NCBI GenBank assembly: GCA_963747235.1 | Contig: CAVVEU010000013.1 | Coordinates: 32,001-96,000, forward strand | Direction of reading: 5' to 3' | DNA length: 64,000 nt | DNA from: an uncultured Candidatus Rokubacteria bacterium | GTDB taxonomy: Bacteria > Methylomirabilota > Methylomirabilia > Rokubacteriales > CSP1-6 | In this document: positions 39,130 to 58,898 of the stretch, piece after piece | Layout: every line of letters starts with the position of its first letter | Numbering within the stretch: the first letter of the stretch is position 1 | Program-made: the position numbers and the translations under genes | Notes under the pieces: model-generated | Databases searched by the model: none | Seen by the model: the letters and a program-made list of their open reading frames with translations, nothing else | What the model was told of the DNA's origin: nothing

Positions 39130-39782
39130 CGGCGGCCTCGCCGCTGGTCTTCGTCGTGGACGACGACCCCTCCGTCCGGAAGAGCCTGACTCGGTTGCTG
39201 GAGTCGGCCGGCTACACGGTCGAGGCGTTCGCGTCGGCCCGGGAGTTCCTCGCGCGCGAGCCGCACGCCGGCCCGTGCTGCCTGGTGCTGGACGTGCGGA
39301 TGCCCGGCCTGACCGGGATCGAGCTGCAGGAGATGCTGGCGGCCACCGGCCGCCGCATGTCCATCGTCTTCGTCACCGGCCACGCCGACGTCCCGACGAG
39401 CGTCAAGGCCATGAAGGCCGGGGCGGTCGATCTGCTCACCAAGCCGGTCGACGTCGAGGATCTCATCGCCGCGATCCAGCGAGCCGTGACGAGGGACGAG
39501 CACGATCGGGCCGCGAGACCCGCCTCGCGGAGATCCGGCGGCGCGTCGGACCTGCTGACCGCGCGCGAGACCGAGGTGTTCGCCCGCGTCGTGACGGGCA
39601 TGCTGAACAAGCAGATCGGCGCGGAGCTCGGCATCGGCGAGAAGACGGTCAAGGTGCACCGCGCCCGGGTCATGGAGAAGATGCAGGCGGGCTCGGTCGC
39701 CGAGCTGGTCCGGCTGGCCGACGAGGTGGGCGTGATCGTCCCCGGGAGCTCATTGGCCGCCGGGCGGACTCGGCCACCGTGA
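39126..39782 (+). CDS. FixJ/NodW-like response regulator (REC + LuxR HTH); 3' end uncertain
   Basis: [53 protein letters not shown]. Confidence 0.93.
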
Positions 39783-40162
39783 CGGCCGACGCGCTCGTCC
39801 TGGTGTGGGTGAGCGAGACGGCGATGGCGCTCAGGCGATAACGGGCGAGCAGCTCCAGGGCCCTCGGGCCGCACACGATACGCGGCGCGCCGTAGCCGTC
39901 GAGCGCGACCGAGAAGTCCTCGGGGCCGATCAACCCCCGCGCGGTCTCACGCGGGAAGAGCTTGAGGCAGGCTTCCTTGGCCGCCAGCCGGGCGGCGAGG
40001 TCTGGCCGCCCGGCTCGGTCCTTCCCCGACGTCGCTCAGCTCCACCCTCGAGAAGAGCTCGATCAGGTCTTCGGTGGGTGTGCGTAGGAGCAAGCGCTCG
40101 ACGCGTGCGATCTCCCCGGTGTCGAGGCCGCAGCGAGTGAGGGGCCTGGTGATGTCCGCCAT
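39750..40162 (-). CDS. acpS: Holo-[acyl-carrier-protein] synthase (frameshifted; end approximate)
   Basis: [31 protein letters not shown] motifs across three frames. Confidence 0.8.
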
Positions 40163-41450
40163 CACGGGGCGTCGCCGGCCGCGGCTCGGAAGACGAGCGC
40201 GGTGTTGGACCCGCCGAAGCCCCGGTTCAGGACGAGCGCCACATCACTGCGGAGCGCCTGGGGCAGGGCGGACACCGGCAGGCTCCCGACGTCGGGATCC
40301 GACTGGCGCAGGGTCGCCACGCCGGGCACGACGCGGTGGCGCAGGGCCGCCAGGGCCAGCACGCTGTCCAGGATGCCCGAAGCGGCGAGGGGATGGCCGA
40401 AGGCCCACTTGAACGCGGTGACGGGCGGGGTGGCGTCACCGAACACCCGGCGGATGGCCAGCGCTTCGGATGCGTCGGATGCCCGGGTGGCGCTGCCGTG
40501 CGCGACGATCATCCCGACCTCGGCCGGGCGCAGCGCGGCGTCGTCGAGCGCGAGCGCGATCGCGTCCGCGAGCCCGTCGCCGTCGGCGCGGATGGGCAGC
40601 AACCCTTCCGCCTCCGACGGAGCACCCGCTGCCGAGGAACTCGCCGAAGACCGTGGCGTCGGCGCTCGGCCGCGGCCTTCTCCGTCTCGAGAAACAGCGC
40701 GCCGGCCCCTTCGCCCAGCACGCTGCCGCTGCGCCGGACGTCGAAGGGCCACAAGCCATCCGCGCTGAGGAGTCCGAGCTGATGGTAGTAGAGGACCATC
40801 TGGGGCTCGATTGGCGCATCGTGCCCGACCGCCAGCGCGCGATCGGCCTCGCCGGCGCGCAGCGCCGCGGCCGCCTCCGCGATCGCCAGGGATCCGCTCA
40901 CGCTGTGGTTCGTCAGGCAGGCATTCGGCCCTTTCAGGCCGTGGCGGATGCCGACGTGGCACAGGACGTTGTTGGGCATGGACCGCAGGAGCCACATCGG
41001 ATTCACGGTGGCGGTGAGCTCACGGCCGAAGGCCCGGAGATCTCCGTTCGCGGCGGTGAGGAGCGGGAAGAACTCGTACTCGTTCTGGTAGCTGCCCCCG
41101 CCCATGCCGACGTAGACGCCGGTGCGGTCATTGACCGTGCCCGCGGCAGCGGCTTCCAGGCCCTTGCGGTAGGCGACGAATCCGGAATCGTCGAGGGCCC
41201 GGGCGGCCGCGTACAGGCCGAGGAGGTCGCTGCGCTGGAGCAGCCGGTGGAGCTTGCGATCCTCCACCAGGGCGCGCGGATCCAATCCGGTGATCTGGCC
41301 GGCCAGTGAGGTCGGCCAGATCGATGTGTCCCACTGCTGGATGGGCCGGACCGCGGATCGGCCGGTCCACACCGCACCCCAGATCTCCCCTGGAGACTTG
41401 CCGGCGGCGCAGATGGCGCCGGTCCCGGTCACGACCACCCGGACGCTCAC
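40162..41450 (-). CDS. Beta-ketoacyl-ACP synthase-like protein with Ser at the catalytic Cys position (one frameshifted stretch)
   Basis: VVVTGTG, GPNACLTNHSVSG, PFD..GEGAG, HGSAT, KWAFGHPLAASG, NRGFGGSN. Confidence 0.88.
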
Positions 41451-55472: not shown

Positions 55473-58400
55473 GTGCTCCCCAAGTACCGATTCCTCGATC
55501 CCCCGGCGGTTCCCACGACGCTGGTTGACCTGCTGCGCGAGCGGGCAGAATGCCAAGCGGACGATAGGGCGTATACGTTTCTGGTTGACGGAGAATCCGA
55601 GGAAATCCATCTGACCTATCACGAGCTCGACCGGCAGGCCCGGGCCATCGGAGCATGGCTGCAGTCTCAGGGCCTGAAGGGCCAGCGGGCCATGCTCCTC
55701 TACCCACCCGGGCTCGATTTCATCGCGGCGTTCTTCGGCTGTCAGTATGCCGAAGTGGTGGCGGTGCCGGCGTATCCGCCGCGAATGAACCGCGCGCCGG
55801 CCGGCATCCAGGCGATTGCCGCTGATGCCGGCGCGACCGTCGCGCTCACGAGCGACGCAGTGCTGGAGCGAATCGGGCCACTGATCGACCAGACCGCAGA
55901 CCTGAAGGCTCTGCGCTGGCTCTCCACCGACGGACCCGTTCATGGGGTCGAAGGGGGATACGAGGGGGAGTGGCGGCGACCGCAGATCACCGGCGAGACG
56001 CTCGCGTTCCTTCAGTACACCTCGGGCTCGACGGGGACCCCCAAGGGCGTGATGCTGAGCCATTCGAACCTGCTGCATAACTCGGCCCTGATCGCCTATG
56101 CCTTCGAGCACACGCGGTCCGCTTCTGGGGTGTTCTGGCTGCCGAGCTACCACGACATGGGGCTGGTCGGTGGGATTCTCCAGCCGCTGTACGTGGGCCG
56201 TCCGAACATCCTGATGCCGCCCATGGCGTTCATTCAGAAGCCGTTGCGCTGGCTCCAGGCCATATCCCGCTACCGCGGGACAACGAGCGGTGGTCCGGAT
56301 TTCGCGTTCGACCTCTGCGTGCGCAAGATCACGCCGGATGAGCGGGCCACGCTGGACCTGAGCAGCTGGACCGTGGCCTTCAGCGGAGGCGAGCCGGTGC
56401 GGGCAGACACCCTCGATCGGTTCGCCGAGACGTTTGGGCCTTGCGGCTTCCGGCCGGAGGCCTTCTACCCTTGCTACGGCCTGGCCGAGGCGACACTCCT
56501 GGTGGCGGGCGGGCACAAGACCGCTCCGCCCATCGTCCGCTGGTTCGATGCCAGATCGCTGGAGGCCGACCGCGCCGTGCCGACCGCCGCCAACGACGAC
56601 GGGGCCCGCCCCCTGGTCGGTTGCGGACAGACCATGCCCGACCAGCAGACGGTCATCGCCGATCCGAGCCGGCTGACCCGCATGCCGGCCGGCCAGGTCG
56701 GTGAGGTCTGGGTAGCGGGGCCAAGCGTCGCGCAAGGATACTGGCGACGGACCGACGAATCGGAGCAGACGTTCCGCGCGCGCCTGCACGACACCGGCGA
56801 AGGCCCGTTCCTGCGTACCGGTGACCTCGGCTTCACGCACGACGGCGAGCTGTTCGTCACCGGCCGGCTGAAGGACATGCTGATCATCCACGGCCGGAAC
56901 CATTACCCACAAGACCTGGAAGCCACCGTGGCCAGGAGCCACGCGAGCCTGCGGGCCGGCTGGGCCGCCGCGTTCACGGTCGGGGAGGGTCCGGAACAGC
57001 AGGTGGTGATCATCGTTGAGCTGGAACGCCATCAGCGGGCGGCGGCGGCCCAGGTGGTCGGGGACATTCGCCGTGACGTGGCCAGAGAGCATGATCTCGT
57101 GGTCGACTCGATCGCGCTCGTGCGCGCCGGAACTATCCCCCGGACTTCCAGCGGCAAGATCCAGCGGCACGCCTGCCGTGATGCGTTCCTGGGTCTACGC
57201 CTTGACGTGGTGGCCGATTGGCATCGGGCCGCAAGCGACCGGCCCGTCGTGGCTCCCGCCTCTTCGCAGGGCCGGGTCCCGAGATCCGAGGAGCGAGGCC
57301 GTGACGCGGCCGCTGAGCCGCGTCGGCCGGAGGCCGCTCGAGGTCCGGCGCCTTTGAACGGTGGTCGCGTCGCGCTGCGCGCGCAGACCCTCGAGGCGAC
57401 CGGGGAGATCGTGCTCGACGTGGTCCGGGCGATCGGCAAGGACCGGACGGTGGGGATCGGGTTGGACTCGTCCATCGTCGAGATGGGGCTGGATTCGCTC
57501 GAACGGATGGAGATCGTCGCGGCGCTGGAGAGCCACTTCGGCGGCCGGCTCCCGGACCAGGTGGTCGCCGAGATGTACACGTGCCGCGAGGTCATCGACG
57601 CGGTCCAGAAGTACCTGGTGGACGGCGCGGGACTCGCGCGGGACGTCGGGGGCGGTCGCGATCCCGGCGGAAGACCATCGGTTCGATCTCTACCCGGAGT
57701 ACATCAAGCTGAAGGAGAGCTTCGAGATGCTCGAGGCGACCGGGCTGACGAACCCGTTCTTCCGGGTCCACGAGCGGGTCGCCAACGACACGACCGTGAT
57801 CGGCGGCCGGGAGCTGATCAACTTCTCGAGCTACAACTACGTGGGGATGTCCGGCGATCCGGTGGTCTCGGCCGCGGCGCAGGCCGCGATCGATCGCTAC
57901 GGGACGTCGGTGTCGGCCAGCCGCCTGGTGTCAGGCGAGACGGGCCTGCACCGCGAGCTGGAGCGGGGGATCGCCGACTTCATCGGCGTCGACGACGCGA
58001 TCGTCTTCGTCGGCGGGCACTCGACGAACGAGACCACCGTGGGCCACCTCTTCGGGCCGGGCGATCTGATCCTGCACGACGCCCTCGCGCACAACAGCAT
58101 CGTCCAGGGTGCCATGCTGTCCGGCGCCCAGCGGCGCCCGTTTCCCCACAACGACTGGGAGGTCGCTGGACCGGGTGCTGGCCGACCTGCGCGGCGATTA
58201 TCGCCGCGTGCTGGTCGCGATCGAGGGCGTCTACAGCATGGACGGCGACATCCCGGACCTGCCCCGGTTCATCGAGGTCAAGAAGCGCCACAAGGCCTTC
58301 CTGCATGGTCGACGAAGCGCACTCCGCCGGCGTGCTGGGCCCTCACGGCCGCGGCATCGGCGAGCACTTCGGCGTCAATCCCGCACGACGTCGATCTCTG

Positions 58401-58898
58401 GATGGGCACGCTGAGCAAGTCGCTTCGGGAGCTGCGGCGGGTACATCGCCGGCGACCGGGCGATGGTCGGAGTATCTCAAGTACACCGCGCCGGGCTTCG
58501 TGTACAGCGTCGGCATCTCGCCGGCCAACGCGGCCGCCGCCCTCGCCGCGATCCGGCTCTTGACCGACGAGCCCGAGCGGGTCGCCGCGCTTCACGAGCG
58601 GGCGCGCCTGTTCCTCGCGCTGGCCCGGGCGCGCGGCTTGAACACCGGCCTGAGCCACGACTCTCCGATCGTGCCCGTGATCCTGGGGGATTCGCTCCAT
58701 TGCCTGCGGCTGTCGCAGGCAATGTTCGACCGCGGGATCAACGTGCAGCCGATTCTCTATCCCGCGGTCGAGGAGCGGGCGGCGCGGCTGCGCTTCTTCA
58801 TCACCGCCGGCCACACCGAGGAGCAGATCCGCCACGCGGTCGACGTGACCGCGGAGGAAGTCGGCCGGATCAATCCGAAGTACCTGCGCCGGATCTAG
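55473..58898 (+). CDS. Fatty acyl-AMP ligase - ACP - PLP-dependent alpha-oxoamine synthase (SPT/BioF class) fusion; compensating frameshifts 57660-58470
   Basis: [96 protein letters not shown]. Confidence 0.92.

Follow-up and report, generated by a model that had tools for sequence, protein, structure and literature searches.

The DNA analysed here, referred to as the window, is a stretch of 64,000 nucleotides from a Candidatus Rokubacteria genome of approximately 70% G+C, and corresponds to G000:C13:32001-96000 of a source assembly (G000) with 42 contigs, 88% completeness and an estimated contamination of 4.9%. Between positions 39,751 and 58,898 it carries a cluster of 17 genes, among them a single gene in which a fatty acyl-AMP ligase (FAAL), an acyl carrier protein (ACP) and an alpha-oxoamine synthase (AOS) are fused, together with genes for a YghO-type GNAT protein, an extended short-chain dehydrogenase/reductase (SDR), an AUR1-like PAP2 protein, an ABC-2 exporter and a set of type II fatty-acid synthase (FAS) enzymes (Table 1). 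The cluster is real and conserved and, as argued below, it probably directs the synthesis of a ceramide-type lipid. A first-pass annotation of the window had placed a sphingolipid-type cluster at 39750-58898, and mapping of intact orthologues recovered every one of the components that it listed.

The PAP2 gene and the fusion gene lie on the plus strand, and the remaining 15 genes form one tightly packed string on the minus strand; in the related genome G020, many adjacent genes of this string abut or overlap by a few bases, from one end to the other. The flanks, a histidine-kinase ATPase domain on the left and OmpA and BON proteins on the right, are unrelated to the cluster. Genes were mapped by tblastn of intact orthologues from G020 and from contig C12 onto the window, and domains were assigned with Pfam and NCBIfam. 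Namely, antisense open reading frames (ORFs) in DNA of 70% GC contaminated the training set for GC3 and codon usage, and orthologue mapping was chosen for this reason. Throughout, G labels denote related genomes (41 relatives were compared), C12 is a second contig of the window's own assembly, and L labels denote excerpted loci, e.g. L013/L014 for C12, L015 for G003:C91 and L109 for G004:C47:21000-39005.

The fusion protein

In its intact G020 copy, the fusion protein matches the Pfam families AMP-binding, PP-binding (residues 649-709) and Aminotran_1_2 (165.7 bits over residues 780-1122). Against the FAAL of the E. coli spt operon, the FAAL domain shows 34% identity (E 2e-78), and the AOS domain shows 34% against E. 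coli Spt (E 5e-60); the top match of the latter domain among PDB sequences is the Spt of Sphingobacterium (227.9 bits), with BioF and Kbl enzymes also among the top matches. Judged by these similarities, the three domains correspond to AasR, AcpR and Spt. According to the available portions of PMC9386255, AcpR is loaded by AasR in Caulobacter and other 'Rhodobacteria', and Spt prefers the resulting acyl-AcpR as its substrate.

In a tree of 37 AOS rows, the fusions form a clade (100/100) that joins the proteobacterial Spt clade (96/93), as seen against four non-Spt outgroup rows only, namely E. coli BioF, E. coli Kbl, a Kbl-like gene of G000 and a Methylocapsa AOS; the Spt of Bacteroidota and myxobacteria, ALAS and CqsA were left out of this tree. 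Since none of the Spt equivalog cut-offs is reached, we call the domain Spt-like rather than Spt. The window genome encodes another AOS (G000:C39:17451-18533, L112), which groups with E. coli Kbl (100/99) and by this placement is of the glycine C-acetyltransferase type, not a second Spt. A literature search, with supplements and the primary 2022 bCerS/CerR paper outside its scope, found no description of a fused FAAL-ACP-AOS (AasR-AcpR-Spt) protein, and the available portions of PMC9386255 and PMC11324152 make no mention of such a form.

Relation of the GNAT and SDR genes to proteobacterial ceramide genes

The ceramide genes of Caulobacter crescentus, as given in excerpts of PMC9386255, PMC11324152 and PMC11087976, are aasR (CC_1165), cerR (CC_1164), acpR (CC_1163), spt (CC_1162) and cerS/bCerS (CC_1154), of which CC_1164 and CC_1154 finish dihydroceramide synthesis (PMC9386255). 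The counterparts in E. coli BL21 are ECD_02851 (aasR), ECD_02852 (equivalent to CC_1164), ECD_02853 (acpR) and ECD_02854 (spt), with yghO/ECD_02850 as the counterpart of CC_1154 in the legend of Fig. 9 of the same paper (PMC9386255). Among the YghO papers listed in a literature search there was no functional one. In our comparisons, E. coli and alphaproteobacterial spt loci served as stand-ins for the published bCerS and CerR query sequences. RefSeq annotation of a non-K-12 E. coli (FDN-24, L142) places yghO divergently beside genes for a fatty acyl-AMP ligase, an NAD(P)-dependent oxidoreductase, an acyl carrier protein and a serine palmitoyltransferase. In E. coli K-12 (L021), yghO abuts IS5, and the FAAL-oxidoreductase-ACP-spt-lptG-lptF genes of FDN-24 are absent from the K-12 region viewed.

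The cluster GNAT and YghO of E. coli K-12 share 36% identity in an alignment of 370 residues (E 1e-82), and the SDR is 30% identical to the E. coli oxidoreductase encoded between the FAAL and ACP-spt genes (E 1e-40). The G020 copy of the SDR scores 121.5 bits on Pfam Epimerase, its best NCBIfam match being HpnA with 137 bits, under the cut-off of that model. It starts directly with the nucleotide-binding motif VLVTGGTGFIG, as does its E. coli homologue; Caulobacter CerR is described in the available part of PMC11087976 as located in the periplasm.

A similar picture comes from alphaproteobacterial genomes, 29 of the 201 sampled being matched by the NCBIfam alpha-Spt model at E <= 1e-120. Fourteen of these 29 spt loci were taken with roughly 10 kb on either side where the contig allowed, some of them being cut by contig ends, and tblastn found homologues of the FAAL, the SDR and the GNAT in 13, 12 and 9 of the 14, respectively, the misses including loci cut by contig ends. 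In 11 of the 12 loci with an SDR homologue the ligase was found too, and there the SDR homologue lies between the ligase and the Spt gene. What is more, the best genome-wide match of the SDR was the spt-adjacent gene in the cerR position in all five alphaproteobacterial genomes searched, and the GNAT had a single match per genome, within approximately 10 kb of spt (5/5 as well). By sequence, the cluster GNAT is of the same family as the proteobacterial bCerS, and of a different subclade.

Related clusters in the genus and order

A search of the 41 related genomes with the FAAL part of the fusion found copies in G020 (94%), G000:C12 (82%), G009 (75%, the copy being cut by a contig end) and G003 (48%), and the near-identical clusters of G020, G003 and C12 are largely intact. 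In DNA alignment the whole cluster is common to the window and G020, with 94.7% identity over 39403-49298 and 86.9% over 49709-59125. C12, a contig of 28.7 kb from the same assembly, is 86-95% identical in nucleotides, apart from a stretch of 73.8% at 49.0-52.1 kb, and given the 86% identity with syntenic flanks we take it to come from a related strain that was binned with the source genome, and not to be a paralogue. In the window's genus, each of the four clusters holds both the ceramide-type and the FAS parts, on one strand. The cluster of G003 (G003:C91) is approximately 81% identical in most genes, and is taken to be a mosaic because its fusion gene is divergent (48-62% identical only), one segment is inverted, and the GT-B-like gene is exchanged for an additional beta-ketoacyl synthase (KS) gene; the AOS domain of its fusion groups with those of a betaproteobacterial metagenome-assembled genome (MAG) and a Phycisphaerales MAG (100/99).

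Orthologous GNATs (>= 78% identity) are confined, among the 41 relatives, to G000, G003 and G020, and more distant YghO-type genes (40-42%) occur in four further genomes. G040 has the gene order AOS-GNAT-SDR. In the sister species G004 (L109, 1-12728), a fully reducing type I polyketide synthase (PKS) of at least 2,512 residues, with the order KS, acyltransferase, dehydratase (DH), methyltransferase, enoyl reductase (ER), ketoreductase (KR) and ACP, is followed by genes for an AOS, a YghO-type GNAT, a PAP2 protein and an extended SDR; in other words, this locus is a PKS-fed variant of the ceramide-type pathway.

Recurrence in other phyla

Among 8,000 scored candidates, 4,707 proteins of 626-1,994 residues match the AOS part at E <= 1e-10, and named examples from the fusion search include Candidatus Rokuibacteriota (93%) and Pirellulales (74-78%). 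Of the 150 best representatives at 50% identity, at least 19 align with the fusion from end to end, and a full-length or near full-length fusion is present in 23 of the 80 loci retained from named genomes. These 23 loci are mostly from Planctomycetota, the others including Pyrinomonadaceae, Gemmatimonadota, a betaproteobacterial MAG and Legionella resiliens. The gene order is SDR-fusion-PAP2-GNAT in Gemmatimonadota and fusion-ABC-ABC2-GT-B-like-GNAT in Phycisphaerales and in the betaproteobacterial MAG; in Legionella resiliens the GNAT gene lies approximately 1 kb from the fusion, and the Pirellulaceae genome G043 has the order KS-GNAT-SDR. The AOS and the YghO-type GNAT thus recur together, often with an SDR and sometimes with PAP2 or with ABC-2 and GT-B-like genes. 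In five planctomycete loci (L027, L022, L032, L040 and L046), a conserved gene of approximately 390 residues, without a family in Pfam, is the next one downstream of the fusion and is read in the opposite direction.

PAP2, accessory and fatty-acid synthase genes

The PAP2_3 domain scores 33.5 bits in the window copy and 41.9 bits in G020 (cut-off 27). Yeast AUR1 provides the only matches among PDB sequences, and these are weak (E 0.01, 58 residues), with 'FPSGH' and 'HYAADI' of the cluster protein aligned to 'FPSLH' and 'HYFVDL' of AUR1. These SGH...HYxxD motifs, which hold the conserved His and Asp residues, are catalytic in PAP2/AUR1 proteins. That PAP2 is linked with AOS, GNAT and SDR in G004 and a Gemmatimonadota MAG lends support, though no proof, to a role in transferring a headgroup to ceramide.

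As for the accessory genes, the FemAB-like protein scores 23.7 bits on Acetyltransf_6 (cut-off 22) and 18 bits on FemAB_like. The lipoprotein has no Pfam, NCBIfam or PDB sequence match, and its language-model look-alikes in the Atlas include clusters of TseH-like and IcsB-middle-domain cysteine hydrolases/acyltransferases, which we take as a lead only. The GT-B-like gene carries an internal deletion of 410 bp in G020, and its intact C12 copy lies at L013:13397-14386 on the plus strand. The family, for which neither Pfam nor NCBIfam has a model, numbers 5,050 proteins at E <= 1e-5 out of 8,000 scored candidates, with identities of 73-95% between Gemmatimonadota, Acidobacteria, Deltaproteobacteria, Phycisphaerae and others. 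Since weak Epimerase_2 matches occur in 17 of 17 members and weak Glyphos_transf matches in 14 of the 17, these profiles suggest a GT-B-type fold; a profile search against PDB gave matches with E of 0.17-1.8 only, including a TagF-like polymerase at E 0.73. An AlphaFold model of this protein, with a mean pLDDT of 46.1, was too poor for use.

A KS, KR, DH, ER, ACP and phosphopantetheinyl transferase (PPTase) were all found in the cluster with Pfam and NCBIfam, and no cluster protein has a FabD (Acyl_transf_1) or FabH-type match in these databases. The first-pass description of a full type II FAS with AcpS is therefore correct as regards the enzymes that it named and overstated as regards 'full', and the cluster, lacking FabD and FabH, is not fully self-contained as had been claimed. 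The FabG-like KR scores 255.8 bits on TIGR01830 (cut-off 297.75) and 228.3 bits on the subfamily model NF009466, above its cut-off of 222; the FabF-like KS scores 452.1 bits on TIGR03150 (cut-off 493.75) and 438.3 bits on NF005589, above its cut-off of 387. In translation, the KS-like protein next to it has Ser in place of the active-site Cys ('TNHSVSGS' as compared with 'HTACASGS' of the FabF-like KS).

Table 1. Genes of the cluster, with positions in the window, strand and basis of assignment
Feature	Position	Strand	Basis
FAAL-ACP-alpha-oxoamine synthase fusion (AasR+AcpR+Spt-like); 1,139 aa, intact in G020	55473..58898	+	Pfam AMP-binding, PP-binding, Aminotran_1_2
PAP2_3/AUR1-like membrane protein, 320 aa; window copy intact	54215..55177	+	PAP2_3
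FemAB-like/Acetyltransf_6 protein, 386 aa in G020; window copy frame-broken	53081..54235	-	Acetyltransf_6, FemAB_like
Lipoprotein, ~278 aa, His and Cys motifs, lipobox AAGC	52256..53059	-	Sequence motifs
YghO-type GNAT, bCerS-like, 379 aa; one in-frame TGA in window	50966..52084	-	YghO homology
Extended SDR, CerR-like, 327 aa in G020; window copy heavily frame-broken	49992..50940	-	Pfam Epimerase
GT-B-like protein, 329 aa, intact solely in C12; window copy frame-broken	49044..49941	-	Weak Epimerase_2/Glyphos_transf
Beta-ketoacyl-ACP synthase, 432 aa, intact	47641..48936	-	Pfam ketoacyl-synt N and C; PRK07103 399.7 bits (cut-off 445)
ABC transporter ATPase, DrrA/NodI-like; one frame change in window	46696..47638	-	Pfam/NCBIfam
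ABC-2 permease, intact	45557..46696	-	ABC2_membrane_3 139 bits
FabL-type enoyl-ACP reductase, 255 aa; one frame change in window	44792..45557	-	NF005975 FabL 342.2 bits (above cut-off 328)
FabG-like 3-oxoacyl-ACP reductase, 252 aa; one frame change in window	44025..44781	-	TIGR01830, NF009466
Acyl carrier protein, 143 aa, intact	43590..44012	-	PP-binding domain, NCBIfam ACP models
Double-hotdog dehydratase, FabZ/FabA-like, 278 aa, intact	42748..43581	-	Pfam/NCBIfam
FabF-like ketosynthase, 432 aa; window copy frame-broken	41450..42741	-	TIGR03150, NF005589
KS-like protein, 426 aa, Cys-less, chain-length-factor-like; window copy frame-broken	40168..41444	-	NCBIfam and translation
AcpS-type phosphopantetheinyl transferase, 163 aa; one frame change in window	39751..40162	-	ACPS 34.2 bits

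Proposed pathway and alternatives

We propose that the two transcription units probably make an N-acylated sphingoid-base lipid, by a route built on the bacterial Spt, bCerS and CerR pathway; the chemical steps are all deduced from homology and gene order, as are the amino-acid substrate and the part played by the FAS. The FAAL domain would adenylate a free long-chain fatty acid and load it onto the ACP domain of the same chain, and the C-terminal oxoamine synthase, dependent on pyridoxal phosphate, would condense the acyl-ACP with an amino acid, serine being the likeliest candidate, and so form a 3-keto long-chain base. This base would then be N-acylated by the YghO-type GNAT and its 3-keto group reduced by the extended SDR. 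The AUR1-like PAP2 protein would probably add a phospho-headgroup, and the ABC-2 transporter may export the lipid from the cytoplasmic membrane. The co-transcribed FAS set (KS, a KS/chain-length-factor-like pair, KR, DH, FabL-type ER, ACP and PPTase) is probably the dedicated source of a saturated acyl chain at one of the two positions, and the FemAB-like protein, the Cys/His lipoprotein and the GT-B-like protein may be accessory modifiers.

Homology, gene order and recurrence thus favour the ceramide-type interpretation put forward in the first-pass annotation. In particular, its expectation that the genes would co-occur elsewhere is borne out in other genomes and phyla, its CerR-like SDR is consistent with the spt-adjacent best matches and the identity to the E. 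coli oxidoreductase, and its AUR1-like PAP2 agrees with the PDB matches, weak as they are, which run across the catalytic motifs. The placement of the GNAT in the bCerS clade holds in part: the protein is YghO-type, with its only match near spt in the alphaproteobacterial genomes, and it falls outside the proteobacterial subclade in an unrooted tree. Of the three conditions that the annotation named for its refutation, two were examined (the placement of the GNAT and SDR, and co-occurrence), and neither refuted it. The N-acyl chain may come from the dedicated ACP, as the annotation suggested.

A number of observations weigh against this reading, and they concern the assignment of the enzymes as well as their association and integrity. 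The AOS domain lies below the NCBIfam Spt equivalog cut-offs (310.4 bits against 640 for the CFB model, 281.5 against 500 for BetaP and 240.7 against 670 for AlphaP), its score on the BioF model is slightly higher than its Spt scores (343.6 bits, cut-off 426.45), and it is equidistant (33-34%) from E. coli Spt, Kbl and BioF; the sampling of the outgroup in the AOS tree, four rows, is thin. In the GNAT tree (22 rows, unrooted, with no outgroup outside the family), the alphaproteobacterial and E. coli proteins form a clade (100/99) that excludes those of G020 and G003. A GNAT gene lies near the fusion in only 4 of the 23 fusion loci, within the stretch examined, 5 of the 23 being shorter than 8 kb; yet a YghO-type GNAT is encoded elsewhere in the genome in 5 of 5 genomes tested, in one of them in two pieces. 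In an annotated Pirellulaceae locus the genes around the fusion are housekeeping ones (enolase, riboflavin synthase and KsgA). The sister species G005 (L110) and G002 (L111) have YghO-type GNATs (approximately 39% identical) with no cluster-type AOS in the 16-20 kb examined. Finally, at least 11 of the 17 window genes are broken by a frame change or a stop, as mapped by tblastn.

One alternative is that two functionally separate neighbours are at hand, namely a ceramide-type module (fusion, PAP2, GNAT, SDR and ABC-2) and a type II FAS/PKS-like module, unrelated to it, that would make a different lipid or a polyketide. In other phyla the genes for the fusion, GNAT and ABC-2 do occur without the KS, DH, KR, ER and ACP set (L033, L098 and L034), FAALs take free fatty acids and no thioesterase that would release the FAS product was found, and one KS is without the active-site Cys. 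The last feature is shared with the KS/chain-length-factor pairs of type II PKS systems, in which one partner has no active-site Cys. However, both parts are carried by all four clusters of the genus, on one strand and with many genes abutting or overlapping; the type I PKS of G004, directly upstream of AOS, GNAT, PAP2 and SDR, indicates that a dedicated chain-maker recurs as a partner, and a KS adjoins GNAT and SDR in the Pirellulaceae genome G043. We therefore consider a division into two unrelated modules unlikely.

Another possibility is that the same enzyme logic operates on an amino acid other than serine (alanine, glycine or cysteate), the product being a 1-deoxy-sphingoid, a sulfonolipid-like compound or another aminolipid. 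The AOS scores just given, with no Spt equivalog cut-off reached and the best score on BioF, would fit such a substrate; a cysteate-C-fatty acyltransferase is among the PDB relatives of the AOS (149 bits), and the fusion clade is a long-branched sister to the proteobacterial Spt clade, not a member of it. On the other hand, the top PDB sequence match is the Sphingobacterium Spt, and the partner genes have homologues in Caulobacter and E. coli that act on bases derived from serine, which makes a different amino acid a rather doubtful proposition. Were the serine reading wrong, the cluster would point to a new family of amide-linked aminolipids.

The state of the window copy raises the question of whether the cluster of this genome is a decaying pseudogene array. 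The broken genes are the fusion, the FemAB-like GNAT, the YghO-type GNAT (one TGA), the SDR, which is the worst, the GT-B-like gene, the ABC ATPase, both FAS reductases, two KS genes and the PPTase. The fusion gene shifts frame at approximately 57627 and a second time between 58167 and 58302, in the AOS domain (tblastn frames 3/1/3), and the match to the SDR is broken up over three frames. Pfam domains on the longest ORFs of the window are split accordingly: the aminotransferase profile is covered at positions 183-359 only, the ABC ATPase extends over two ORFs and the ketosynthases are fragmented. Relative to both G020 and C12, indels that are not multiples of three reach 39-49 per kb at 50-51 kb, and 16-49 per kb across 49-51 kb, and the GT-B-like gene is damaged in G020 as well, all of which would fit genuine decay. 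However, such indels are also found in the flanks (3-9 per kb at 35-39 kb and 59-61 kb), and most differences between the window and G020 are single inserted bases. An extra window base is absent at each of seven positions (47237, 49042, 49403, 49569, 58380, 58423 and 58468) in contigs that come from four further metagenome runs and three studies, these contigs being from related strains and not from the source reads, and their low cover at 49.8-52.2 kb being left out of account; a search of sequencing runs for the source reads found no run with more than 0.16 of the sampled words. Because the indels extend into the flanks and the extra bases are missing from the contigs of other runs, we read most of the frame breaks as assembly errors, and a wholesale array of pseudogenes seems to us improbable. 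The SDR and GT-B-like stretch could be truly decayed.

Finally, that the product is a lipid anchor for a capsule- or LPS-like (lipopolysaccharide-like) polymer, or an alpha-hydroxyketone signal of the CqsA/LqsA type, might be suggested by the ABC-2 exporter, the GT-B-like gene and the AOS chemistry of the cluster and by the related fusion in a Legionella species, but is most improbable, given 156.8 bits on the autoinducer-synthase model (cut-off 428), the absence of polysaccharide polymerase or export genes from the cluster in Pfam and NCBIfam, and partners that are bCerS-like and CerR-like.

Comparison with known systems and significance

Bacterial sphingolipids were long considered rare, and the pathway of Spt, bCerS and CerR was defined only recently, in Caulobacter. 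All five functions of the ceramide genes of Caulobacter and E. coli BL21 have homologues in the cluster, at 30-36% identity to the E. coli proteins, and the logic of adenylation, transfer to ACP and condensation by an AOS is shared, with the GNAT here directly followed by the SDR. The differences are several. AasR, AcpR and Spt are separate proteins there and one chain here, in another phylum; LptF/G paralogues accompany the genes there, whereas here an ABC-2 exporter does; a PAP2/AUR1-like gene is part of the cluster, whereas neither PAP2 nor sphingomyelin synthase is named in the available portions of PMC11324152; and the cluster has, in addition, a type II FAS set, a FemAB-like gene, a lipoprotein gene and a GT-B-like gene. 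To yeast AUR1, the inositol-phosphorylceramide synthase of the PAP2 superfamily, the PAP2 protein is linked by its PAP2_3 domain and aligned motifs, and the similarity is otherwise very weak.

A parallel as regards the supply of the chain is SgaAB of Pseudomonas fluorescens MYb115, described in the available part of PMC12134224 as an iterative type I PKS with an AOS of serine palmitoyltransferase activity. As far as that text goes, a dedicated chain-builder is likewise paired with a Spt-like AOS in a cluster of secondary-metabolite style, and the PKS-AOS arrangement of G004 parallels SgaAB; by contrast, the chain of the present cluster would enter through a FAAL and ACP fused to the AOS, and its maker would be a type II system. 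Spt-like proteins of a 'clade B' with neighbouring bCerS and CerR genes have been reported from about 40 phyla, including 138 Planctomycetota MAGs (PMC11334938, in part), and resemble the present case in combining a Spt-like AOS with bCerS-like and CerR-like genes. The present cluster has a fused FAAL-ACP-Spt, a form of which the available text of PMC11334938, supplements being outside the search, makes no mention. Since Spt/bCerS/CerR clusters have been reported in so many phyla, the pathway itself is already known. Its combination with PAP2, ABC-2, a GT-B-like gene and a type II FAS was not found described in our literature search, supplements and the primary 2022 paper again being outside its scope.

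We tentatively go one step further, with somewhat more doubt than conviction. Namely, the fusion may be a single-chain 'sphingoid-base synthase' (AasR+AcpR+Spt) that is conserved in the sampled Pirellulales/Planctomycetota and mobile among Rokubacteria-like bacteria, Gemmatimonadota, Acidobacteriota, Legionella and others, and that, with the GT-B-like family and ABC-2, would define a second, widespread bacterial sphingolipid route, here fed by a dedicated FAS of KS/chain-length-factor type giving an unusual chain. The covalent fusion of the acyl-ACP synthetase, its carrier protein and Spt lends independent support, of the 'Rosetta-stone' kind, to the AasR to AcpR to Spt channel proposed from biochemistry. 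As a single gene, it also serves as a simple marker by which likely producers of sphingolipids can be picked out among uncultured soil phyla and Planctomycetes. Moreover, the AUR1-like PAP2 protein, the GT-B-like family, the ABC-2 exporter, the FemAB-like protein and the Cys/His lipoprotein are candidate partners for headgroup addition, modification and export.

Base composition

Between 46000 and 56000 the G+C content of the window is 57-66%, as compared with about 70% elsewhere. This low-G+C span covers the ABC, KS, GT-B-like, SDR, GNAT, lipoprotein, FemAB-like and PAP2 genes, and the dip is compatible with acquisition from outside.

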